NCBI GenBank assembly: GCA_016184305.1
Contig: JACPCX010000032.1
Location: 1-10,455 of the forward strand
DNA from: Candidatus Rokuibacteriota bacterium
Lineage (GTDB): Bacteria > Methylomirabilota > Methylomirabilia > Rokubacteriales > CSP1-6
Direction of reading: 5' to 3'
Length of the DNA: 10,455 bases
The position numbers and the translations under genes are program-made. The first letter of the stretch is position 1, and each line of letters begins with the position of its first letter. Positions 1 through 10,455 of the stretch are shown in pieces. Below the pieces are notes generated by a model, which was not told the DNA's origin, did no database searches, and was given only the letters and a program-made list of their open reading frames with translations.

Positions 1-670
1 TGACGATCACGCCGAAGGAGAGCGCCTTCCAGAAGCCGGTCATGATGTCGGTCATGTCCACGAAGTTCTGCATCTCGCCGAAGTACGTGCCGGACGAGAG
101 GCCCAGGAGCTCCACGCTCACCAGGTACCCGCCGAAGATGCCCACCACGTCGAAGAGGGCGGTCATCAGCGGGAAGGTGAGGAGCCCCGCCACGATGGGC
201 GGCACCACGAGGTAGCGGGTCGGGTTCAGCGCCATCACCGTCAGCGCGTCGATTTGCTCCGAGATCCGCATGATGCCGATCTCCGCCGTCAGCGCGGAGC
301 CTGCCCGCCCGGTGACGATGAGGGCGCAGAGCACGGGGCCCAGCTCGCGGATCAGGGTCAGCGCCACGGCCGGACCGAGGAACGCCTCCGAGCCGAAGCG
401 TGACAGGGTCAGGAAGACCTGGAGGCCCAGCACCATGCCCGTGAAGGCGCCGGTGAGGATCACGATGGTGAGGGAGCGGAAGCCGATGAAGTGGATCCGG
501 TCCAGCAGCTGGCGCAGCTTGAACGGCGGGATGAACAGGTGGGCGACGGCGTCACCGAGGAAGGCGCCGAAGCGTCCCAGCGCGGCCATCACGTCGAGCG
601 TGACGGCCCCCACCGTGCCCACGAGACGAACCGGGAGGGCCTGGGGCGCGGGCGCGGCGGGCTCGCTCAT
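1..670 (-). CDS. mlaE: MlaE/YrbE-family (MCE/Ttg2B) lipid ABC transporter permease, 3' end truncated by the window edge
   Basis: Manual translation from ATG at 670 (absent from the ORF track because there is no stop in the window): MSEPAAPAPQ...FIGFRSLTIVILTGAFTGMVLGLQ...LIRELGPVLCALIVTGRAGSALTAEIGIMRISEQIDALTVMALNPTRYLVVP. The RELGP, GRxGSAxxAEIG and EQIDAL motifs are characteristic of MlaE. The start overlaps the shc stop (ATGA, 670-667). Confidence 0.93.
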   Translation of the reverse strand, partial: MSEPAAPAPQALPVRLVGTVGAVTLDVMAALGRFGAFLGDAVAHLFIPPFKLRQLLDRIHFIGFRSLTIVILTGAFTGMVLGLQVFLTLSRFGSEAFLGPAVALTLIRELGPVLCALIVTGRAGSALTAEIGIMRISEQIDALTVMALNPTRYLVVPPIVAGLLTFPLMTALFDVVGIFGGYLVSVELLGLSSGTYFGEMQNFVDMTDIMTGFWKALSFGVIV

Positions 671-2625
671 CCGCGGGTATTCCGGTAGACGCCGAGCGCC
701 CAGAGCGGGAAGTACCGGGCGTAGAGGTGGTACTTCAGGTAGAACACGCGCGGGAACCCCGTGCCGTTCCAGAGCCGGTCCTCCCACGACCCGTCCCCCC
801 GTTGCGTCTCGAGGAGGAAGGCGATACCCCGCTCGACGGCGCGCCCCTGGGTGTGCCCGACGGCGAAGAGGCCCAGGAGCGCCCATGCGGTCTGGCTGGG
901 GATGGAGTCCCCTCGGCCGGCCACCGTGGGGTCCTCGTAAGAGGCCAGCGTCTCGCCCCAGCCGCCGTCGGCGTTCTGTCGTGCCTCGAGCCAGGTCGCC
1001 GCGCGCCGCACGTACTCCTGGGAGCTGCTCTCCCCGATGGCGCCGAGCCCGCGCAGCACGGACCATGTGCCGTAGATGTAGTTCACGCCCCAGCGGCCGT
1101 ACCACGGACCGTCCTCACGCTGGGTCCGTCTCACGAAGTCCAGGGCGCGTCGGGCCGCTGGATTGTCGGGCCGGTACCCGAGGGTGCCGAGCAGCTCGAG
1201 CCCGCGCCCCGTGAGGTCCTCCGTGGATGGATCCAGCAGGGCGCCGTGGTCGGCGAAGGGGATGTTGTTGAAGATGAGCCGGTTGTTGTCGGCATCGAAA
1301 GAGCCCCAGCCTCCGTCCGACCCCTGCATCCCCACGAACCACTCGAGTCCCCGCGTCAGCGCCCGCCGCCGCCGCTCCGGATCCAGCCCCTGGATCTTCC
1401 AGAGGGCCATCATGACCATGGCCGAGTCGTCGAGATCCGGGTAGAAGTCGTTGGTGTACTGGAAAGGCCAGCCCCCGGGGGTGACATGGGGCCGCTTGGC
1501 CTGCCAGTCGCCCGGGACGGTCACCTGATGGTCGATCATCCACTCGCCAGAGCGAACGAGCGCGGGGTCATCGGCGGGGAGCCCGGACTCGATCAGTGCA
1601 TTGACCGCGATGGAGGTGTCCCACACGGGGGAGACGCACGGCTGGTAGTGGAGCGACTGGCCGTCCTCGACGCCGAGCGCCTCGATCTCCTTCACCTGCC
1701 CGCGGAACAGCGGGTGATCGTCCGGGTAGCCCAGACAGCGCAGCGCAAGGACCGCGTTCACCATGGCGGGGAAGATGCCGCCGAGCCCTCCGGGCACGGC
1801 CAGCCGCTCCTCCAGCCACTGGCGCGCCGACTGGATGGCCCGTCCGCGGAAGGGCCGCGGACCGAGCCGCTCCCAGCCCTTGAGGCAGTCGTCCACGCCG
1901 ATGAAAATGTTCTTCCACAGGAAGGTCTTTGGCGCGAAGGGCCGGGGCACCCGGTGGAAGCGGAGGCTGGCGCGCTCCCGCGGAACCGGCCAGAGCTCGT
2001 CCAGGTGACGGTTGAACGCCAGGCGCTTCACCGGCTTGACGTCCATCAGGACGAGGAGCGGCACGATGACGGTGCGCGACCAGTAGGAGACCTCGAGCAG
2101 GTTGAAGTACGACCACCGGGGCAGGAGCATGATCTCCACGGGCATGGCCGGGATGCCCGACCAGTCGTACTCGCCGAAGAGCGCGAGCAGGATCTTCGTG
2201 AACACGTTGGCCTCGACAGGGCCGCCCCGGCCGCGGATGAGCGCCCGGGCGGCCGCCATGGCGGGATCCTCGGGCGCCACCCCCGCCGCCTTCATGGCGA
2301 AGTACGCCTTGATGGTGGCCGAGAGGTCCGCGGGGCCGCCCTCGTAGAGGCTGAAGCCGCCGTCGGGCAGCTGCTGCCGCCGGAGGTAATGCACCATCTT
2401 TTGCTCGCGCTCCCGGTCCACCCGATCCAGCAGGTGACAGAGGAGGAGGTACTCGCTGGTGATGGTGCTGTCGGCTTCCAGCTCGCCGACCCAGTGCCCG
2501 TCCGGCGCCTGGCTCGAGAGGAGATGCTGCTGGGCGCGCTCGATGACGGCGTCGACCTCGCGGGACACCGTACCCGATGACGACGCCCGAGATAGCCCCG
2601 CTGAATTGGTTCTCGGGGAAAACAC
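667..2625 (-). CDS. shc: Squalene-hopene cyclase
   Basis: 652 aa with the catalytic DxDD motif (YPDLDDSA), repeated QW motifs (QAPDGHW, QGSDGGW, QREDGPW, QNADGGW, QRGDGSW), QPCVSPVWDT, IPFADHGALLDP, GRWGVNYIYGTW and C-terminal GTGFPRVFYLKYHLY. The GTG start at 2625 is uncertain. Confidence 0.98.
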   Translation of the reverse strand: MFSPRTNSAGLSRASSSGTVSREVDAVIERAQQHLLSSQAPDGHWVGELEADSTITSEYLLLCHLLDRVDREREQKMVHYLRRQQLPDGGFSLYEGGPADLSATIKAYFAMKAAGVAPEDPAMAAARALIRGRGGPVEANVFTKILLALFGEYDWSGIPAMPVEIMLLPRWSYFNLLEVSYWSRTVIVPLLVLMDVKPVKRLAFNRHLDELWPVPRERASLRFHRVPRPFAPKTFLWKNIFIGVDDCLKGWERLGPRPFRGRAIQSARQWLEERLAVPGGLGGIFPAMVNAVLALRCLGYPDDHPLFRGQVKEIEALGVEDGQSLHYQPCVSPVWDTSIAVNALIESGLPADDPALVRSGEWMIDHQVTVPGDWQAKRPHVTPGGWPFQYTNDFYPDLDDSAMVMMALWKIQGLDPERRRRALTRGLEWFVGMQGSDGGWGSFDADNNRLIFNNIPFADHGALLDPSTEDLTGRGLELLGTLGYRPDNPAARRALDFVRRTQREDGPWYGRWGVNYIYGTWSVLRGLGAIGESSSQEYVRRAATWLEARQNADGGWGETLASYEDPTVAGRGDSIPSQTAWALLGLFAVGHTQGRAVERGIAFLLETQRGDGSWEDRLWNGTGFPRVFYLKYHLYARYFPLWALGVYRNTRG

Positions 2626-2709: not shown

Positions 2710-2817
2710 GACGCATCGGCCCAATTCCACCCTGGGTCGGCCGCTGACCCGGGCGGGTGCCACGGGGGGCATTGCCGGTGAGCGAGGTGGCGACGGTCGG
2801 CGCGCCTAGGCGCGGGC

Positions 2818-2934
2818 CTCCACTACGGGCTCTTCCTCTTCACCCGGACCCTGACGCTCTGGATCGGCGAACCCCTGCTGGCAGCGGCCGGATTCCTGAT
2901 CCACGACGCCCCCTTTCTGGTACCCTATCTCGCG
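2818..2934 (+). pseudogene. Possible remnant of a membrane-protein gene (resembles a DedA N-terminus)
   Basis: Translates as LHYGLFLFTRTLTLWIGEPLLAAAGFLIHDAPFLVPYLA, with 33 of 39 codons ending in G/C. There is no in-frame ATG/GTG after the upstream TGA at 2779. GEPLLAAAGFLIH resembles DedA GExxLxxAGFL. Confidence 0.25.
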
Positions 2935-3106
2935 TGTGTTCGACGCGCCGTGGTGCTGACGGAGGAGCCCAGCGCATGGCGAGACGAGGCGGGTCCCGTC
3001 GCGACCGACGGCTCCAGCTTTACCTCATGGGCCGGTCGCGAGCCCGATGCGGGCCAGCGGCCCGAAGAGGCTCCGGTGATGCGGACGTCCCGATGAGCCC
3101 GATGAG

Positions 3107-3234
3107 GGCGAAGAGGCCACACCGCCACCCGATGTCATTCACATTCAGGCGAGATACTCGATGAGCCGCGCAGCGGCGAAGAGGCCACACCGCCACCCGA
3201 TGTCATTCACATTCAGGCGAGATAATAGATGAGC
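3107..3234 (+). repeat. Two-copy direct repeat, period 68 bp
   Basis: GGCGAAGAGGCCACACCGCCACCCGATGTCATTCACATTCAGGCGAGATA is identical at 3107-3156 and 3175-3224. The match extends to 58/60 through the following (C/A)T(C/A)GATGAGC, and the second copy contains the hpnH ATG. Confidence 0.97.
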
Positions 3235-4245
3235 GTACCGCTGTCCCAGGTGGTCACGGTGGCCTCCTACATCATCAGGCAGAAGCTCGCCCGCCGGCAG
3301 CGCTACCCGCTGGTGCTCATGCTGGAGCCCCTCTTCCGCTGCAACCTCGCCTGCGCCGGGTGCGGGAAGATCCAGTACCCGGCCCAGATCCTCCGGAAGC
3401 ACTTGACGGTGGAGCAGTGCGTGAAGGCGGTGGAGGAATGCGGGGCCCCCATCGTCAGCATCCCGGGAGGCGAGCCGCTCATGCACCCGGAGATGGACAA
3501 GATCGTGGCGGCGCTGGTGGCGAAGCGGAAGTACGTGTACCTCTGCACCAACGCGCTCCTCCTGAAGGAGAAGCTCTCGCTGTTCACGCCGTCCAGGTAC
3601 CTGACCTTCAGCGTCCACATGGACGGGCTCCGCGAGGAGCACGACGACGCCGTCTGCCGCGAGGGCGTCTACGACAGGGCGGTGGAGGCGATCCGCGAAG
3701 CCCTGGCGCGCGGGTTCCGCGTGACCACCAACACGACGCTGTTCGACGGGGCCTCGCCGCTCCGGATGCGGGAGTTCTTCGACGAGATGATGAGCCTGGG
3801 GGTGGAGGGCATGATGCTCTCGCCAGGCTACAGCTACTCCAAGGCACCCGATCAGGAGCACTTCCTGCGCCGGACCAAGACCCAGGCGCTGTTCACGCGG
3901 ATGCTCGCCCACCCCAAGCGGCGCTGGAGGTTCAACCAGTCACCGCTTTTCCTGCGCTTCCTCATGGGCAAGCACGACTTCGAGTGCACGCCCTGGGGCA
4001 ACCCGACGTACAACATGTTCGGCTGGCAGCGCCCCTGCTATCTCCTCCAGGACGGGTATGCCGCCACCTTCCGCGAGCTGATGGACACCACCGAGTGGCA
4101 GCGGTATGGCCGCCGGAGCGGCAACGAGAAGTGCCAGGACTGCATGGTGCACTGCGGGTTCGAGGCGACGGCAGTGGACCATACCTTCGGCTCCCTCAAG
4201 GGGCTCGTCGAGACCGTTGCGGTCACGCTGACCGGCAGGCTCTAG
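3229..4245 (+). CDS. hpnH: Adenosylhopane synthase, radical SAM (hopanoid C35 side-chain formation)
   Basis: YPLVLMLEPLFRCNLACAGCGKI (CxxxCxxC), SIPGGEPL, YLCTNA, CTPWGNPT, GWQRPCYL and KCQDCMVHCGFEATAV are typical of HpnH. It is divergent from shc. Confidence 0.96.
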   Translation: MSVPLSQVVTVASYIIRQKLARRQRYPLVLMLEPLFRCNLACAGCGKIQYPAQILRKHLTVEQCVKAVEECGAPIVSIPGGEPLMHPEMDKIVAALVAKRKYVYLCTNALLLKEKLSLFTPSRYLTFSVHMDGLREEHDDAVCREGVYDRAVEAIREALARGFRVTTNTTLFDGASPLRMREFFDEMMSLGVEGMMLSPGYSYSKAPDQEHFLRRTKTQALFTRMLAHPKRRWRFNQSPLFLRFLMGKHDFECTPWGNPTYNMFGWQRPCYLLQDGYAATFRELMDTTEWQRYGRRSGNEKCQDCMVHCGFEATAVDHTFGSLKGLVETVAVTLTGRL

Positions 4246-4246
4246 C

Positions 4247-4579
4247 ATGTCCCTCGAGGGCTGGACGCCCCAGATCGGGCCGTACCTGACGCTGGAAGAA
4301 GTGATCGAGCATGCCTTCGATTATCGCGGCAACATCACGGTGGTCAGGACGGACGGGACCGACATCGTCGGCTACCTCTTCAATCGCAACGCGAGCGCGC
4401 CGGAGTCCTTTGTCGAGATCTTCGACGAGACGGGCGAGGGTCCCATCAGGATCCGCTGTGCCGACATCGCGACCATCACGTTCACCGGGAAAGACACGGC
4501 AGCCGGGAATGCGTGGACTGCCTGGCTCGAGCGCAAAGACAAGGACAGAGCCGAGAACGCCGCCGCCTCCGGCGCCTAG
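4247..4579 (+). CDS. Hypothetical protein, 110 aa, possibly Sm/LSm-like beta fold
   Basis: Starts 1 nt after the hpnH stop and ends 4 nt before hpnG. Codon usage is coding-like and the composition is protein-like (AFDYRGNITV..DG..IVGYLFNR..FTGKDTAAGNAWTAW). Confidence 0.85.
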   Translation: MSLEGWTPQIGPYLTLEEVIEHAFDYRGNITVVRTDGTDIVGYLFNRNASAPESFVEIFDETGEGPIRIRCADIATITFTGKDTAAGNAWTAWLERKDKDRAENAAASGA

Positions 4580-4583
4580 CGCG

Positions 4584-5291
4584 GTGAGCGGAATCCTGAT
4601 CCTGACGGCCGTGGAGCTCGAAACCACGGCCCTGGCGCGCCACCTCGATCTCCCGCTCCTCCCGGCCTTCCCCTTTCGTGCCTACGGGCGTGGCGACGTC
4701 CGGATCGCTCCGGTGGGCCCCCGGGCCGGCCGCCTCCACGAGCGCTGGCCGCGACTCTTCCAGGGCTTCTCGTCGGCGCTCGTGGTGTCGGCAGGCCTCT
4801 GCGGAGGGCTCGCCCCGTGCCTGAGGGTCGGCGATCTCGTCGTGCCGGACACGGTGCTCGCCCCATCGGGCGAGATCCTGCGCGTGAACGGGCCGGCGCG
4901 CGAGCGGCTCCTCGCCCAGGCGGGCGGATGCGCCCACACGGGGTGCCTCGTCACGACTCGCGAGGTCGCCGCCACGCCCGAGGGGAAGGCCCTCCTCCAC
5001 GCCGAGACCGGGGCCGCCGCCGTGGACATGGAGTCGGCCCCGATCCTGAGTCACGCTACCGCCGCGGGCTGCCCCGCGCTCGTGGTGCGCGCTGTCTGCG
5101 ACGATGCGGCACACGCCGTGCCGCCAGCGCTGAGCCGGCTGGTCACGGCCGATGGGCGTGTCCACGGGGGCCGGACGCTCGCCTTGGCGTGGACCCACCC
5201 GGGGAGCATCGCCCACGCCGTGGCGCTCCGACGGGGCAGCCGGCTGGCGCTCGGGGCCGTGGCCCGAGCGCTCGCCACGCTCGCGGGTTAG
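4584..5291 (+). CDS. hpnG: Hopanoid-associated nucleoside phosphorylase/nucleosidase (PNP_UDP family)
   Basis: GTG start at 4584 inside track ORF 4311..5291, giving 235 aa: ILILTAVELE, SAGLCGGL..LRVGDLVV, AVDMESA, VRAVCD. The position after hpnH supports the hpnG call. Confidence 0.88.
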   Translation: MSGILILTAVELETTALARHLDLPLLPAFPFRAYGRGDVRIAPVGPRAGRLHERWPRLFQGFSSALVVSAGLCGGLAPCLRVGDLVVPDTVLAPSGEILRVNGPARERLLAQAGGCAHTGCLVTTREVAATPEGKALLHAETGAAAVDMESAPILSHATAAGCPALVVRAVCDDAAHAVPPALSRLVTADGRVHGGRTLALAWTHPGSIAHAVALRRGSRLALGAVARALATLAG

Positions 5292-5302: not shown

Positions 5303-6316
5303 ATGGACGTCCTGGTCACGGGCGGCACGGGCTTCGTCGGCGCGAACCTGGTTCGCGCGCTCCTGGCGGACGGGCAGACGGTGCGCGTTCTCGCCCGGCC
5401 CGGGGGTGACCGCAGGGCTCTCGAGGGCTGCATGGTCGAGATCGTCGAGGGGGACCTGCTGGACCGCGACTCGCTGGTCCGAGCGGTACGTGGCGCCCGG
5501 CGCGTCTATCACGTGGCGGCCGACTACCGTCTGTGGGCGGCGGACCCGTCGGCGCTCTTCCGCGCCAACGTGGATGGCACGCGCCACGTGCTGGAGGCGG
5601 CCGCGGCCGCCGGCGTGGAGCGGATCGTCTACACCTCGACCGTCGGGGCCCTGGGCATCCCGGAGGACGGGACTCCGGGCGACGAGCGGACACCCGTGTC
5701 GCTCGTGGACATGGTCGGCCCCTACAAGGCGTCGAAGTTCCTGGCCGAGGAAGTCGCCCGGGAGTACGCGGCGCGCGGTGCGCCCGTGATCATCGTCAAC
5801 CCCTCGGCACCGGTGGGGCCGTGGGACGTCAAGCCGACCCCGACGGGCAAGATGATCGTCGACTTCCTCAGGGGCAAGATGGTGGCCTCTCTCGACACGG
5901 GACTCAACGTCGTCCATGTCCGTGACGTGGCCCGGGGCCACATCCTCGCCGGCGAGCGGGGGCGCGTCGGGGAGCGCTACGTGCTGGGTCATCAGAACGT
6001 GTCGCTGCTCGAGATCTTCCGCATGCTGGCTCGGCTCACGGGAATCCCCGCGCCCCGCTTCCGCGTTCCCTACGCCGTGGCGTGGCTGGCGGCCGCCGGG
6101 ATGGAGGGCGTCGCCCGGCTGACGGGCACCCCGCCCTCGGTGTCCCTCACGGCGGTGCGCATGGCACGCAAGCGCATGTACTTCAGCCCGGCCCGGGCCG
6201 TCCAGGAGCTGGGGCTGCCCCAGACGCCGGTCGAGGAGGCCCTGCGGGACGGCGTGGAGTGGTTCCTGTCGCGCGGCTTCGTCCGGCGGCCTTCTGCTCG
6301 GAGCCGCGCGGCATGA
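5303..6316 (+). CDS. hpnA: Hopanoid-associated NAD-dependent epimerase/dehydratase (extended SDR)
   Basis: ATG at 5303 after GGGGAG, 337 aa. Motifs VLVTGGTGFVG, HVAADYRLW, YTSTV, YKASK and VNPSAPVGPWDVKPTPTG. Confidence 0.93.
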   Translation: MDVLVTGGTGFVGANLVRALLADGQTVRVLARPGGDRRALEGCMVEIVEGDLLDRDSLVRAVRGARRVYHVAADYRLWAADPSALFRANVDGTRHVLEAAAAAGVERIVYTSTVGALGIPEDGTPGDERTPVSLVDMVGPYKASKFLAEEVAREYAARGAPVIIVNPSAPVGPWDVKPTPTGKMIVDFLRGKMVASLDTGLNVVHVRDVARGHILAGERGRVGERYVLGHQNVSLLEIFRMLARLTGIPAPRFRVPYAVAWLAAAGMEGVARLTGTPPSVSLTAVRMARKRMYFSPARAVQELGLPQTPVEEALRDGVEWFLSRGFVRRPSARSRAA

Positions 6317-7155
6317 ACGCCGAGCGCTTCGTCTCCCGTCTGACCCGCAAGAGCCGCTCCAACTTCTTCTACGCCTTCCTCCTCCTGCCGCGCGCCCAGC
6401 GCGAGGCGATCTTTGCCGTCTACGCCTTCTGCCGCATCGTGGACGACACGGTGGACGTGGGCCAGGACCGACCCGCCCAGCGGCAGGAGCTTCGGCACTG
6501 GCGGGGGGAGATCGGCCGGGTCTTCGAGGGCAGACCCGAGCACCCCGCAGCCCAGCGCCTCCAGCAGGCGATCCGCGCCTTCCCCATCCCTCGCTCCGCG
6601 CTCGAGGACATCATCGACGGCGTCGAGATGGACCTGGACCATCCCACGTACGAGACCTTCGAGGCGCTGTACCCCTACTGCTACCGGGTGGCGTCCGCCG
6701 TCGGGCTGTGCGCCATCGCGATCTTCGGCCACGCCGACCCGCGCGCGCGCGAGTACGCCGTGAACCTCGGCATCGCGCTCCAGCTCACGAACATCCTGCG
6801 CGATGTCCAGCAGGACGCGCGCATGGGGCGCGTCTACCTGCCGCAGGAGGACCTGTCCCGCTTCGGCGTGACGGCGGACCAGCTCCGGGACGGTCGCTAC
6901 ACGCCCGGATTCGTGGAGCTGATGACGTGGGAGGCCGCCCGCGCCCGCGACTTCTACGGTCGTGCCTGGCAGGCCTTTCCGGAGACAGACCGGCGGACGC
7001 TCTTCGCCGCCGAGATCATGGGCCGGACGTACTTCGCCCTCCTGCGGGCGCTGGAGGCAAGCCGCTTCCGGGTGTTCGACCGCCAGGTGACCGTTCCTGC
7101 GGCCCGGCGTCTCGTCATCGCGCTCTCGTGTTGGGCGCGCGCGCGCCTTCCATGA
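6313..7155 (+). CDS. hpnD: Presqualene diphosphate synthase (squalene/phytoene synthase family)
   Basis: ATGA overlap with hpnA, 280 aa. Motifs SNFFYAFLLLP, YAFCRIVDDTVD, YCYRVASAVG, LQLTNILRDV..D and GRVYLP. Confidence 0.9.
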   Translation: MNAERFVSRLTRKSRSNFFYAFLLLPRAQREAIFAVYAFCRIVDDTVDVGQDRPAQRQELRHWRGEIGRVFEGRPEHPAAQRLQQAIRAFPIPRSALEDIIDGVEMDLDHPTYETFEALYPYCYRVASAVGLCAIAIFGHADPRAREYAVNLGIALQLTNILRDVQQDARMGRVYLPQEDLSRFGVTADQLRDGRYTPGFVELMTWEAARARDFYGRAWQAFPETDRRTLFAAEIMGRTYFALLRALEASRFRVFDRQVTVPAARRLVIALSCWARARLP

Positions 7156-8162
7156 AGGCCTCGGTGTCCGTGGGTGACGGGGCGCTGGAGCTCCGCGACT
7201 GGCCGGTCCCGGCCGCCGGCCCCGGCGAGCTCTTGCTGCGGATGCGTGGATGCGGGCTCTGCGGGTCCGACATCGCCAAGCTCATGAGTGGCCGCGCCGC
7301 CCCGCCGGCGGTGCTCGGGCATGAGGTCGTGGGGGACGTCCTGGAGACGGGAGCCGGCGTCTCGCGCTTCGCTCCCGGGGACCGCGTCGTCGTGGCCCAT
7401 CACGTGCCGTGCTTCCAGTGCCACTACTGCCGGCGCGGGAGTCCCTCCATGTGCCGCGTCTTCAAGCGCATCAATCTGGATCCAGGTGGCTTCGCCGAGC
7501 GCGTGCGCGTGCCGGCGCCGAACGTCGAGCACGCCGCCTTCGCGATCCCAACTGACGTCCCCGACGAGACGGCGTCCTTCACCGAGCCCCTGGCGTGCTG
7601 CCTGCGCGCCGTCAAGCGTTGCGGCACGGAGGCCGGCGACACCGTGGTGGTCGTGGGTCTTGGCTCCATCGGCTGTCTGCTCGTCCAGGGCTTCCGGCTG
7701 GCCGGCGCGACGGTGGTGGCCACGGACCTCCTGGCCGAGCGTCGGCGGCTTGGTCTCCTGGCGGGGGCGCAGGTGTTCGAGCGCGACGCGGACCTCGGCG
7801 AGGCGCTGCGGGCCCTCACGGACGGTCGCCTCGCCGACGCCGTGGTCATCACGGCCGGTGGCTCCGGGCTCTTGCCGTGGGCGCGGGCGCGTGTCCGCGA
7901 CGGCGGGACCGTCCACTACTTCGCGGGCGGGGGCGGGGACACACTCCCGCTGGCGCTCGAGGACCTGTACCACCACGAGCTCACGCTGTCGGCCACGTAC
8001 TCGTCGTCGCCCGCCGAGCTCCGGGAGGCCTTCGACCTCCTGGTCCGCGGCGCCGTGACGGTGGACGGGCTCATCACTCATCGGCTGCCGCTCGCGCGGC
8101 TCGCGGAAGGCGTGGATCTCATGAAGCGGCAGCAGGCCGTGAAGGTCTACGTGATCCCGTGA
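7152..8162 (+). CDS. Zn-dependent medium-chain dehydrogenase 1 (sorbitol/threonine dehydrogenase-like)
   Basis: ATGA overlap with hpnD, 336 aa. Catalytic Zn motifs CGSD and GHE, structural Zn CFQCHYC..C, EPLAC, and Rossmann GLGSIG followed by VVATD. Confidence 0.93.
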   Translation: MKASVSVGDGALELRDWPVPAAGPGELLLRMRGCGLCGSDIAKLMSGRAAPPAVLGHEVVGDVLETGAGVSRFAPGDRVVVAHHVPCFQCHYCRRGSPSMCRVFKRINLDPGGFAERVRVPAPNVEHAAFAIPTDVPDETASFTEPLACCLRAVKRCGTEAGDTVVVVGLGSIGCLLVQGFRLAGATVVATDLLAERRRLGLLAGAQVFERDADLGEALRALTDGRLADAVVITAGGSGLLPWARARVRDGGTVHYFAGGGGDTLPLALEDLYHHELTLSATYSSSPAELREAFDLLVRGAVTVDGLITHRLPLARLAEGVDLMKRQQAVKVYVIP

Positions 8163-9190
8163 AGGCCCAGGTCTTCCACGGTCCGGGCGATCTCCGCCTG
8201 GAGGAGATCCCGATCCCGGAGCCCGCGCCGGGCGAGCTCCTCGTGAAGATCGAGGCGGCGCTCACCTGCGGGACGGACGTGAAGACGCTGCGCCGCGGCC
8301 ACCCGGTGATGATGCCGCGGGTCCCGACCGTCTTCGGTCACGAGCTGGCCGGCACCGTGGTGGGCGCCGGCGCCGGTGCCAGGGGCTTCCGCGAGGGCGA
8401 CCGGGTCGTCGCGGCCAACTCCGCCCCGTGTGGCGCCTGCGCGCCGTGCCGTGCCGGCCGGCCCAACCTCTGCGAGGACCTGCTCTTCGTGAACGGGGCC
8501 TACGCGGAGTACATCGCCCTGCCTGCGCGGCTCGTGGAGAGGAACGTGGTCCGCATCGCGCTTGAGGTGCCGGCGGCGCGGGCGGCCTTCGCCGAGCCCC
8601 TGGCGTGCGCGCTGCAAGGGATCGAGCGCGGACGCGTGGAGTCCGGGATGACGGTGGTGGTCTTCGGCCACGGGCCACTGGGTTGTCTCCTCGCCATGGT
8701 GGCCGCGCAGCGGAAGGCGCGGGTGCTGCTCGTGGGCAAAGGGGGATGGCGCCTGGACCGGATCCGCGAGGCGCGGATCGCCGAGTGCATGGACGCGCTG
8801 GTGGAGCCCGACATCCCGGCCACCATCCGGGCGGCCACGGGCGGGCGGGGCGCCGACGTGGCCGTGGACGCCACGGGCCAGCCGGCCGTGTGGGAGCGTG
8901 CCATCGAGGTCACCGGGCGCGGGGGAACCGTGGTCTTCTTCGGGGGCTGCTCTCCAGGGACGACCGTGGCAGTGGACACCCGGCGGGCGCACTACGAGGA
9001 GCTGACCCTGGTGGGCGCCTTCCACCACACGCCCGAGCTGATCCGCCGAGCCGTGGAGCTGCTCGAGTCGCAGGCGCTCGTGCCCGACGGTCTCCTCACC
9101 CACACGATGCGGCTGGACGGAGTGCCGCGCGCCCTCGGGATGATGGCGCGCGGCGAGGCGCTCAAGGTGCTCATCACGCCCGACGGGTGA
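8159..9190 (+). CDS. Zn-dependent medium-chain dehydrogenase 2 (sorbitol/threonine dehydrogenase-like)
   Basis: GTGA overlap with the previous gene, 343 aa. Motifs CGTD, GHE, CGACAPC..C, EPLAC, and GHGPLG followed by LLVGKGGWR. Confidence 0.93.
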   Translation: MKAQVFHGPGDLRLEEIPIPEPAPGELLVKIEAALTCGTDVKTLRRGHPVMMPRVPTVFGHELAGTVVGAGAGARGFREGDRVVAANSAPCGACAPCRAGRPNLCEDLLFVNGAYAEYIALPARLVERNVVRIALEVPAARAAFAEPLACALQGIERGRVESGMTVVVFGHGPLGCLLAMVAAQRKARVLLVGKGGWRLDRIREARIAECMDALVEPDIPATIRAATGGRGADVAVDATGQPAVWERAIEVTGRGGTVVFFGGCSPGTTVAVDTRRAHYEELTLVGAFHHTPELIRRAVELLESQALVPDGLLTHTMRLDGVPRALGMMARGEALKVLITPDG

Positions 9191-9274: not shown

Positions 9275-10170
9275 ATGAGCGTCACGCAGGTCCAGCACAT
9301 CGTCCTCGCCGGCCCCCGGGGCTTCTGCGCCGGCGTGGATCGCGCCATCGACATCGTCGAGCTGGCCCTGCAGGTGTGCGCTCCGGGCCAAGGGGGCGCA
9401 CTTCGTGGACGAGCTGGACGAGGTGCCCGACAACGCCACCGTCATCTTCAGTGCCCACGGGATCTCCCCGGCCGTCCGGGACGAGGGCCAGCGGCGTGGC
9501 CTGCGCGTCATCGACGCGACGTGCCCGCTCGTCACCAAGGTCCACCTCGAGGCGATCCGCTACGCGCGCGAGGGCTACTCGATCATCCTCGTGGGGCACG
9601 CCGACCACGACGAGGTGGTGGGGACCATGGGCGAGGCCCCGGACCGGATGTTCCTCATCGCCCACCCGGAAGAGGTGGAGCGCCTGCGCGTCCCCGATCC
9701 GACCAAGGTCGCCTATCTCACCCAGACGACCCTGTCGGTGGATGATACGCGCGACTGCATCGAGGCGCTCCGCGCGCGCTTCCCGAAGATCGTGGGGCCG
9801 GCCAAGGACGACATCTGCTACGCGACCCAGAACCGGCAGGCCGCGGTGAAGACGGTCGCGGCCGCGGTGGATGTTCTCCTGGTGATCGGGGCGGCCAACA
9901 GCTCCAACGCGAACCGGCTGGTGGAGGTGTCGAAGGGGCTGGGCACGCCGTCCTACCTGATCAACGACAAGCACGACATCCGGACGGAGTGGCTCGACGG
10001 CGCGAGCCGCGTCGGGGTCACCGCGGGCGCCTCGACGCCCGAATTCCTGGTGAGCGAAGTCGTGGAGGCGCTCGGCCGGAGGCAGTCCGTCGCGGTGCAG
10101 GAGGTCCACGTGGTGGAAGAGGACGTGCGGTTCGGGTTGCCGCGGGAGCTCGAGGATGTCGCGAAGGCGG
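9275..10170 (+). pseudogene. ispH: 4-hydroxy-3-methylbut-2-enyl diphosphate reductase, disrupted as given (internal frameshifting deletion, no stop codon; 3' end approximate)
   Basis: 9275-9379 gives LAGPRGFCAGVDRAI. From 9381, in a different frame: LRAKGAHFVDELDEVP, FSAHG, DATCPLVTKVH, GHADHDEV, TQTT, DICYATQNRQ, NSSN, TAGASTP, EEDVRFGLPREL. The conserved PxYVRxExVHN block is missing. Confidence 0.9.
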
Positions 10171-10283
10171 CTGCATCTGGTGACGTTCCTGCGCGGGCGC
10201 TGGCTGGCGGCGCGCCGGGTCGGTTTGCAGGAGTGGGTCCAACGGCGCTACCCGACACACGTAGTGCGGAGGAGGTGAGTGCG

Positions 10284-10455
10284 ATGGCGTGGACGATCAG
10301 AGCGAAGTTCTCGCGGGGAGTCTTCGAACCCCTCGAGCCCGCGGTGGCCGACAGGGTCAGCGAGGGCGAGGAGGTGCTGATCACGATCGCGACGCCGCCG
10401 TCGGCGACCGGGGATCCATTGCGGGATACCGCCGGTGGCTGGAAGGACCTGCTCG
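10284..10455 (+). CDS. DUF104/AF2212-like putative antitoxin, partial
   Basis: Strong RBS GGAGGAGGTG (10268-10277) and ATG at 10284. MAWTIRAKFSRGVFEPLEP...EGEEVLITI matches the IxAxxxxGVFxPLEP..EGxxVxIxI pattern. It runs off the window. Confidence 0.72.
   Translation, partial: MAWTIRAKFSRGVFEPLEPAVADRVSEGEEVLITIATPPSATGDPLRDTAGGWKDLL

Follow-up and report, generated by a model that had tools for sequence, protein, structure and literature searches.

The stretch of DNA analysed here, referred to below as the window, is an entire contig (G000:C164) of 10,455 bases from a metagenome-assembled genome (MAG) of a Candidatus Rokuibacteriota bacterium, which is 88.8% complete. It carries a hopanoid operon in which two consecutive genes, designated here MDR1 (7152–8162, plus strand, 336 aa) and MDR2 (8159–9190, plus strand, 343 aa, with a GTG start), encode zinc-dependent dehydrogenases of the medium-chain dehydrogenase/reductase (MDR) superfamily with predicted NAD-type and NADP-type cofactor sites, respectively. 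The gene map, built from the listing of open reading frames (ORFs) together with Pfam and NCBIfam scans, reads hpnH-hpnG-hpnA-hpnD-MDR1-MDR2-ispH, with the divergently transcribed shc gene upstream. Direct reading of the junctions showed that hpnA, hpnD, MDR1 and MDR2 are linked by three consecutive 4-nt overlaps, namely ATGA at 6313–6316 (hpnA stop and hpnD start), ATGA at 7152–7155 (hpnD stop and MDR1 start) and GTGA at 8159–8162 (MDR1 stop and MDR2 start). The latter two had been noted in a preliminary description of this DNA and are exactly as given there.

That description also placed the pair in an operon with hpnH and hpnG, which the family scans confirmed, albeit with a weaker score for the second gene. 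The hpnH gene (3229–4245, plus strand), coding for the radical SAM enzyme adenosyl-hopene transferase, matches TIGR03470 with 545 bits (cut-off 225). It is followed by a gene for an HpnG-like hopanoid-associated phosphorylase (4311–5291, plus strand), which matches PF01048 and scores 119 bits with TIGR03468, under the cut-off of 187; its full length is kept in the related loci. Next come hpnA (5303–6316, plus strand, with its ATG at 5303), a hopanoid-associated short-chain dehydrogenase/reductase (SDR) named 'sugar epimerase' (TIGR03466, 463 bits, cut-off 368), and hpnD (6313–7155, plus strand), the presqualene diphosphate synthase gene (TIGR03465, 324 bits, cut-off 279). The proteins of the window are 96–98% identical to those encoded on a contig of Candidatus Rokubacteria bacterium GWA2_70_23.

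Family, cofactor sites and fold of MDR1 and MDR2

The ORFs of MDR1 and MDR2 are intact and stop-free, and their products are 38% identical to one another, in agreement with their earlier description as divergent paralogues. Each protein combines the domains ADH_N (PF08240; 91.9 bits in MDR1 and 90.1 bits in MDR2, cut-off 23.5) and ADH_zinc_N (PF00107; 54.5 and 66.1 bits, cut-off 31.8). Alignment to solved enzymes (sorbitol dehydrogenase, threonine dehydrogenase and the structure 4ej6) was used to assign the roles of the zinc ligands and the cofactor positions. The predicted ligands of MDR1 (C37, H57-E58 and E145, with C87/C90/C93/C101 for the structural zinc) are invariant in 14 sequences, and those of MDR2 (C37, H61-E62 and E146, with C91/C94/C97/C105) are invariant in 15. 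AlphaFold2 models of the two proteins (mean pLDDT 90.8 for MDR1 and 97.4 for MDR2) bore out the MDR fold, with Foldseek TM scores of 0.85–0.91 to structures of zinc alcohol, threonine and sorbitol dehydrogenases. By their domains, zinc ligands and fold, MDR1 and MDR2 are thus members of the zinc-dependent MDR superfamily. What the predicted structures settle is the fold and the enzyme class, not the substrate.

The GxGxxG motif is retained in both proteins. In enzymes of this kind an acidic residue that ends the second beta strand favours NAD, whereas small plus basic residues at the same place favour NADP. The translated motifs are VVVVGLGSIG...VVATD in MDR1 and VVVFGHGPLG...LLVGKGGWR in MDR2, letter for letter as first described, and the difference between them is conserved: residue 192 of MDR1 is acidic throughout (Asp in 13 of the 14 orthologues and Glu in one), while Gly193 and Arg198 of MDR2 are found in 15 of 15 orthologues and Lys194 in 14, the remaining one having Arg. 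In phmmer alignments the residue facing Gly193 of MDR2 is Asp (that of VVVTD) in human sorbitol dehydrogenase and Glu in Pyrococcus horikoshii threonine dehydrogenase; in 4ej6 the place is taken by Ser-Thr-Arg. The two proteins therefore show a conserved split, judged from these residues, into an NAD-type Rossmann site in MDR1 and an NADP-type site in MDR2. MDR2 is the better conserved of the two, with a mean column identity of 76% (15 orthologues) versus 71% for MDR1 (14 orthologues).

The closest solved relatives of both proteins are polyol, ketose and threonine dehydrogenases, and the structural neighbours found by Foldseek were 4ej6/4ejm, Thermus TADH, threonine and sorbitol dehydrogenases and the NADP-dependent ketose reductase of whitefly. 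The branch of sorbitol dehydrogenase, ketose reductase and threonine dehydrogenase (1pl6, 1e3j and 2dfv) shares with MDR1 and MDR2 the fold, the Cys-His-Glu zinc site and the Rossmann domain, at 22–34% aligned identity and TM scores of ~0.86–0.91, and its NAD/NADP switch lies at the same residue; in this comparison both MDR1 and MDR2 retain the four-Cys structural zinc site. The best PDB sequence match of both proteins (E-values of 1e-41 to 1e-43), and the best fold match of MDR2 (TM 0.90), is 4ej6/4ejm, an uncharacterised, putative zinc-binding dehydrogenase of Sinorhizobium meliloti from structural genomics. It has Ser-Thr-Arg at the cofactor site, shows 30–34% identity and is not known to be connected with hopanoids.

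Among 75 MDR2-like sequences, Lys42 is present in all and His278, Tyr279 and His289 are present in 72–74. Lys42 and His289 align with His49 and Arg298 of sorbitol dehydrogenase, which has His and Arg-Tyr where MDR2 has Lys42 and His289-His290. With Lys42 and His289 at these sites, the alignment fits a polar, possibly anionic substrate for MDR2.

Conservation of the pair in the hopanoid operon

MDR1 orthologues (54–96% identity), with an MDR2-like match listed alongside, were found in 36 of the 41 genomes of the order, that of the window included. In three of the five exceptions (G018, G024 and G029) the contig with the hpn genes stops short of the position of the pair and is uninformative. A scan of contigs from named genomes retrieved only Methylomirabilota-like loci, plus one paralogue at 29% identity (L047) that was left out, which gave 17 contigs for comparison (L030–L046). 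Metagenome loci were taken from the best 80 of 451 relatives, all with at least 69% identity; 79 of these (L061–L139) were used, L060 being omitted because it duplicates L030, a contig of 37,452 bases.

Wherever the named genome contigs have enough flank, hpnD lies upstream of the pair (15 of 15) and ispH nearby (13 of 13); MDR1 is more than 50% identical in 14 of 15, and 46% identical in the remaining one (L045). The metagenome loci agree with this picture: hpnD was found in all 40 loci whose sequence extends 2300 nt or more beyond the start of MDR2, MDR1 in 46 of the 51 with at least 1100 nt upstream (the other five have hpnD directly upstream) and ispH in 56 of the 59 with at least 1000 nt downstream. 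In L045, from a Candidatus Methylomirabilis sp. MAG, the order is hpnH-hpnG-hpnA-ispA-hpnD-MDR1-MDR2, with ispH on the opposite strand. Since the arrangement recurs in all informative related loci, it is not due to chance, and the pair is a fixed part of the hopanoid operon in uncultured Rokubacteria of soil and groundwater. To our knowledge, it has not been reported in the well-studied proteobacterial hpn clusters.

A possible role at the hopanoid side chain

According to a paper of November 2025 (PMC12583986), the enzyme for the step from ribosylhopane to bacteriohopanetetrol (BHT) "has not yet been established", and a review of August 2026 (PMC13459092) draws this step without an enzyme. 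Both sources agree with the preliminary description, which held that no gene had been assigned to the step; the review adds that the expected product of HpnG phosphorolysis has not been observed so far.

We tentatively propose, as a reading that is possible rather than probable, that MDR1 and MDR2 form an accessory, lineage-restricted redox module whose target is the polyol/ribosyl side chain of C35 hopanoids. Three features speak for a hopanoid role in these lineages: the strictly kept place in the operon with its translational coupling, the enzyme class (alcohol/carbonyl redox on substrates resembling polyols) and the NADP-type site of MDR2, the conserved partner. The ribose-derived side chain is the sole polyol or aldehyde of the pathway. 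The cell-free reduction in the work of Bodlenner and co-workers from 2015 reportedly used NADPH.

The two enzymes belong to the polyol/threonine-dehydrogenase branch of zinc MDRs. In the hopanoid operon of Rokubacteriales, and of some relatives resembling Methylomirabilis, their genes are coupled to hpnA and hpnD in translation and are probably transcribed together with them. From these features we infer an involvement in hopanoid metabolism, together with the substrate and the reaction direction of each enzyme, as follows. The target would be the polyol end that C35 hopanoids derive from ribose. There MDR2, which is of the NADP(H) type and the more conserved member, would reduce a carbonyl, namely the C-35 aldehyde of ribosylhopane in its open-chain form or else a keto intermediate, and MDR1, the NAD-type and dispensable member, would oxidise a neighbouring side-chain hydroxyl. 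The pair would in this way carry out a finishing or tailoring step of some lineages and would not be the enzyme of all BHT producers.

A more specific version of this proposal, which we consider unlikely, is a side-chain finishing system in which MDR2 would be the NADPH reductase that converts ribosylhopane (or a keto or phospho-ketose form from the HpnG product) to BHT and, together with the NAD-dependent MDR1, would set or invert the configuration at C-34. Relays of this logic are known from Bacillus subtilis, where inositol is epimerised by IolG/IolX (NAD+) and IolW (NADPH). They are members of the Gfo/Idh/MocA family rather than MDRs, and the likeness, an NAD+ oxidation and an NADPH reduction that invert a polyol hydroxyl, is one of analogy only. 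Were the C-34 version true, the pair would provide a genetic basis for the formation of BHT and of its stereoisomers in Rokubacteria and Acidobacteria.

Dehydrogenase genes of this kind have a precedent in hopanoid clusters. The preliminary description had stated that MDRs are not among the named hpn genes, which needs correction in view of the acidobacterial clusters hpnA-hpnG-ug1 and ug2-hpnC-hpnD-hpnE (Sinninghe Damsté et al., 2017, PMC5462960). In Table S1 of that paper ug1 (~370 aa) and ug2 (~350 aa) appear as Zn-dependent alcohol dehydrogenases, with the function "not established". As far as the published description goes, these are, like MDR1 and MDR2, two Zn-dependent alcohol dehydrogenase genes within a hopanoid cluster near the side-chain and squalene genes; MDR1 and MDR2, with 336 and 343 aa and a position between hpnD and ispH, downstream of hpnG-hpnA, answer to it (PMC5462960). 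They differ in placement, as the pair described here follows hpnD in an operon without hpnC and hpnE and in another phylum. This comparison is with the published description; in sequence, MDR2 has 47% identity with a protein from Terriglobus. The MDR pair is therefore not new in kind, Zn-dependent alcohol dehydrogenase genes in hopanoid clusters having been in print since 2017 (PMC5462960). A search of full-text literature joining hpnG, hpnH and alcohol dehydrogenase found nothing besides that paper, and the accessible passages of two papers on Rokubacteria hopanoids (PMC12324291 and PMC7306690) do not mention MDR genes.

A number of observations weigh against an action of the pair on the side chain, and the first of these concern its distribution. 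Using a threshold of E ≤ 1e-70, we found MDR2 orthologues in 187 of 251 genomes of the phylum; the tallies include the unpublished genomes G012, G079, G089, G120 and G243, and no claim depends on these alone. By family (f1–f13), the positive counts were 144 of 158 in f1, 20 of 21 in f4, 13 of 15 in f8, six of six in f10 and one of one each in f2, f3 and f5. No orthologue was found at this threshold in f6 (0 of 2), f7 (0 of 21), f9 (0 of 1), f11 (0 of 2), f12 (0 of 1) or f13 (0 of 20). HpnH is nonetheless present in 19 of 21 genomes of f7, 19 of 20 of f13, both of f11 and the single ones of f9 and f12, and is absent only from f6 (0 of 2). Families f7 and f13 are thus mostly HpnH-positive without an hpn-linked MDR2 orthologue. 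The f11 genomes have shc and hpnH, and their best-matching MDRs fall outside both the MDR1 and the MDR2 clades; f9 also has shc and hpnH, and its best match to MDR1 is only 37% identical and was not placed on the tree. Some HpnH-positive relatives therefore do without the pair. This distribution contradicts the notion that MDR2, or the pair, is the universal missing reductase from ribosylhopane to BHT, an idea that has in its favour the NADP-type fingerprint of MDR2, the operon shared with hpnH and hpnG and a step without an assigned enzyme (PMC12583986, PMC13459092); given the five HpnH-positive families without an orthologue at that threshold, we regard it as extremely improbable.

Tandem MDR pairs do occur in f13 (G098 and G095, loci L140 and L143) and f7 (G062 and G066, loci L141 and L142), two sister families in the same class, and they lie far from hpnH, at distances of ~1.5 Mb (f13) and ~0.28 Mb (f7) in two single-contig genomes. 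The pair of G098 is surrounded by tyrS, a class A penicillin-binding protein gene, folD, ymdB, rny and pheT, and that of G062 has a DEAD-box helicase/tetratricopeptide repeat gene on one side and a LacI-type regulator on the other. The upstream gene of these pairs belongs inside the MDR1 clade (support of 100 in a FastTree tree of 158 rows and SH-aLRT support of 99 in an IQ-TREE tree of 72 rows). The downstream gene forms a long branch in the broad MDR2-like clade. In its product Asp takes the place of the catalytic Cys37, the structural zinc loop carries an insertion of 5–6 residues and the cofactor site has an NAD-type Asp, changes that suggest an altered enzyme. In view of the f13, f7 and f11 data, the pair is an older two-gene module that lies inside the hpn operon only in some lineages. 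The preliminary description had proposed trees and neighbourhood analysis as a test of co-occurrence with hpn genes; the linkage is seen across the order and is lacking for the pairs of f13 and f7.

Position beside housekeeping or LacI-regulated genes speaks for an alternative in which MDR1 and MDR2 are an ancient, self-sufficient unit that interconverts soluble compounds (a polyol, sugar, sugar phosphate or amino-alcohol) and is carried in the operon of some lineages as a passenger that makes no contact with hopanoids. The breadth of the family points the same way. An exhaustive HMMER search with MDR2 retrieved 43,173 representatives with E ≤ 0.001, of which 1417 had E ≤ 1e-30, and the best relatives beyond its own cluster are 43–48% identical. 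Names on members of the MDR2-like clusters include Terriglobus spp. (Acidobacteriota, 47%), Ktedonobacterales (47%), Bathyarchaeota (43%) and Thaumarchaeota/Nitrososphaerota (41%), so that the clade extends, at 41–48% identity, to MAG proteins labelled Ktedonobacterales or archaea, labels that are fallible. The cofactor site is NADP-type in the Terriglobus and Ktedonobacterales proteins and has Asp in the Bathyarchaeota protein; the Terriglobus protein (cluster of P0008), with Val-Lys-Arg at this site, belongs to the same broad clade as MDR2 and is not its specific sister. A homologue search with MDR1 returned, among the matches listed, close relatives only, and the ESM Atlas matches were generic MDR clusters spread over many phyla and did not discriminate.

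The nearest characterised relatives all use small soluble substrates, and public sources label these proteins L-iditol 2-dehydrogenase. Neither MDR1 nor MDR2 reached an equivalog cut-off in the NCBIfam scan, and the best matches (threonine dehydrogenase, IolM and galactitol-1-phosphate dehydrogenase) attained about one third of the required score. The scores of MDR1 and MDR2 were, respectively, 131.6 and 150.9 bits with TIGR00692 (L-threonine 3-dehydrogenase, cut-off 458.35), 133.7 and 142.9 bits with NF003808 (L-threonine 3-dehydrogenase, cut-off 380), 136.3 and 146.4 bits with NF041097 (scyllo-inosose 3-dehydrogenase IolM, cut-off 450) and 112.6 and 71.4 bits with NF007642 (galactitol-1-phosphate 5-dehydrogenase GatD, cut-off 550). 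A module for soluble substrates is harder to reconcile with the strictly kept, coupled position in the hpn operon across the order and two further families. The divergent downstream genes of f13 and f7 may have changed their function, and both MDR clades are without a member in the two hopanoid-free f6 genomes, one of which (G047) is 100% complete and lacks shc as well as hpnH. On balance, we find the passenger explanation doubtful.

Side-chain tailoring by both enzymes has also to accommodate loci from which MDR1, or both genes, have disappeared. G009 (L056) and six metagenome loci (L064, L076, L081, L083, L118 and L138) have no MDR1, and MDR2 comes directly after hpnD. Between these two genes L138 retains a remnant of 24 residues from the C-terminal end of MDR1 (E-value of 5e-4), which points to secondary deletion. 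Since MDR2 is retained in these loci, MDR1 is dispensable and the two proteins are not an obligate complex. In G006 (L054; G006:C44, around 10481–11235) hpnD is followed by ~750 bases and ispH, with no trace of either MDR gene in this interval. The hpnH and ispH genes of that genome lie in two or three frames each, which makes its sequence quality doubtful, and the locus may represent an error-prone assembly or a decaying locus. The idea of a ribosylhopane reductase or epimerising relay, raised in the preliminary description, is in its general form weakened by the unlinked pairs, the HpnH-positive families without a pair and the losses of MDR1.

The invariant immediate neighbour of the pair is hpnD, not hpnG, and this overlapping upstream gene is one reason to consider a role of the pair in the squalene/isoprenoid branch, as a partner of HpnD acting on farnesol, presqualene alcohol or hydroxysqualene, or as an offset for missing HpnC and HpnE. 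Neither HpnC nor HpnE was found over its cut-off in any of the 41 genomes of the order, nor in the contigs of the MAG that contains the window, and hpnD is kept. In addition, ispA and hpnD precede the pair in L045, and acidobacterial ug2 precedes hpnC-hpnD-hpnE in the clusters as published (PMC5462960). Against such a role stands the established chemistry: alcohol/carbonyl redox by zinc MDRs would not make squalene from presqualene diphosphate or hydroxysqualene. Another contig of the same genome (G000:C61; L059:9291–10727, minus strand) encodes, beside a PhzF-like gene, a second SQS_PSY protein; it is divergent and matches squalene synthase weakly over the full length, and relatives have it too. 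The combination of HpnD and Sqs without HpnC and HpnE has already been described for Rokubacteria and NC10 (PMC7306690). According to the 2017 authors, ug2 is non-essential for squalene synthesis (PMC5462960), and the f13 and f7 pairs do not adjoin hpnD. A part of the pair in the squalene branch is accordingly quite improbable, and the replacement of HpnC and HpnE by the MDRs was rejected on account of the misfit in chemistry, the second SQS_PSY enzyme and the published HpnD-plus-Sqs pattern.

For the side chain itself, HpnA, an NAD(P)-binding SDR that is far commoner in hpn loci, is a competing candidate and adds to the points that count against the pair. Bacteriohopanepolyols (BHPs) and fossil hopanes are widely used biomarkers, and the BHT-forming enzyme and the origin of the BHT stereoisomers lack an assignment (PMC12583986, PMC13459092). 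With its conserved place in the hopanoid operon of two abundant soil phyla, the NAD/NADP dehydrogenase pair offers a concrete candidate that can be cloned. Should MDR1 and MDR2 act on the side chain, they would fill a pathway gap for those lineages and provide a gene marker for particular BHP structures. Should they not, they would clearly exemplify a passenger that is conserved in an operon, and the focus would move to HpnA or to non-specific reductases.

Flanking genes and observations on related loci

The last gene of the window, ispH (lytB; 9275–10455, plus strand), leaves the contig and lies in two frames, with a 56-nt gap at ~9378. It is 56 letters short in comparison with a metagenome contig of 95–98% identity, and the close relatives L061 and L012 have these letters. 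Three public runs (X1, X2 and X5) have contigs in which the missing letters stand as loose ends at 9378–9379, so that the frameshift is an assembly artefact (a collapse), and the possibility of an ispH pseudogene was rejected.

In the complete, single-contig f13 genome G098, hpnH (L144; G098:C1:37461–38398) matches as two overlapping pieces in different frames (profile positions 1–173 and 162–316), which could be a frameshift or a sequencing error. The same organisation as in the window was seen in L031, L034, L036 and L039, from MAGs named Nitrosotalea, Dormiibacterota, Deferrimicrobiaceae and Verrucomicrobiia. These phylum labels were treated as unreliable because the genes are 68–83% identical to those of the window, which points to mislabelled or chimeric bins. 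In L045, a homologue of the CruF-like carotenoid hydratase (814–1770; weak, 46–47 bits) lies just upstream of hpnH, and the ispA gene between hpnA and hpnD encodes a farnesyl diphosphate synthase.

The divergent spacer between shc and hpnH contains a 135-aa ORF (2757–3164) that has no family match, is conserved only in a same-genus contig (87% identity) and is probably not a gene. On its other side, shc (667–2625, minus strand) encodes squalene-hopene cyclase (TIGR01507, 783 bits, cut-off 431; PF13243 and PF13249). Directly 3' of shc and on the same strand lies a gene for an MlaE-like permease of a lipid ABC transporter (2 to ~660, minus strand; PF02405, 204 bits; NF033619 and TIGR00056), the start of which is approximate and which leaves the contig. 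A gene of this type is likewise found beside shc in most related loci, and in the Candidatus Methylomirabilis sp. locus L045 mlaE, mlaF-like and pqiB/pqiC-like genes are close by. The position of the mlaE-like gene beside shc may reflect a link to hopanoid or lipid trafficking.

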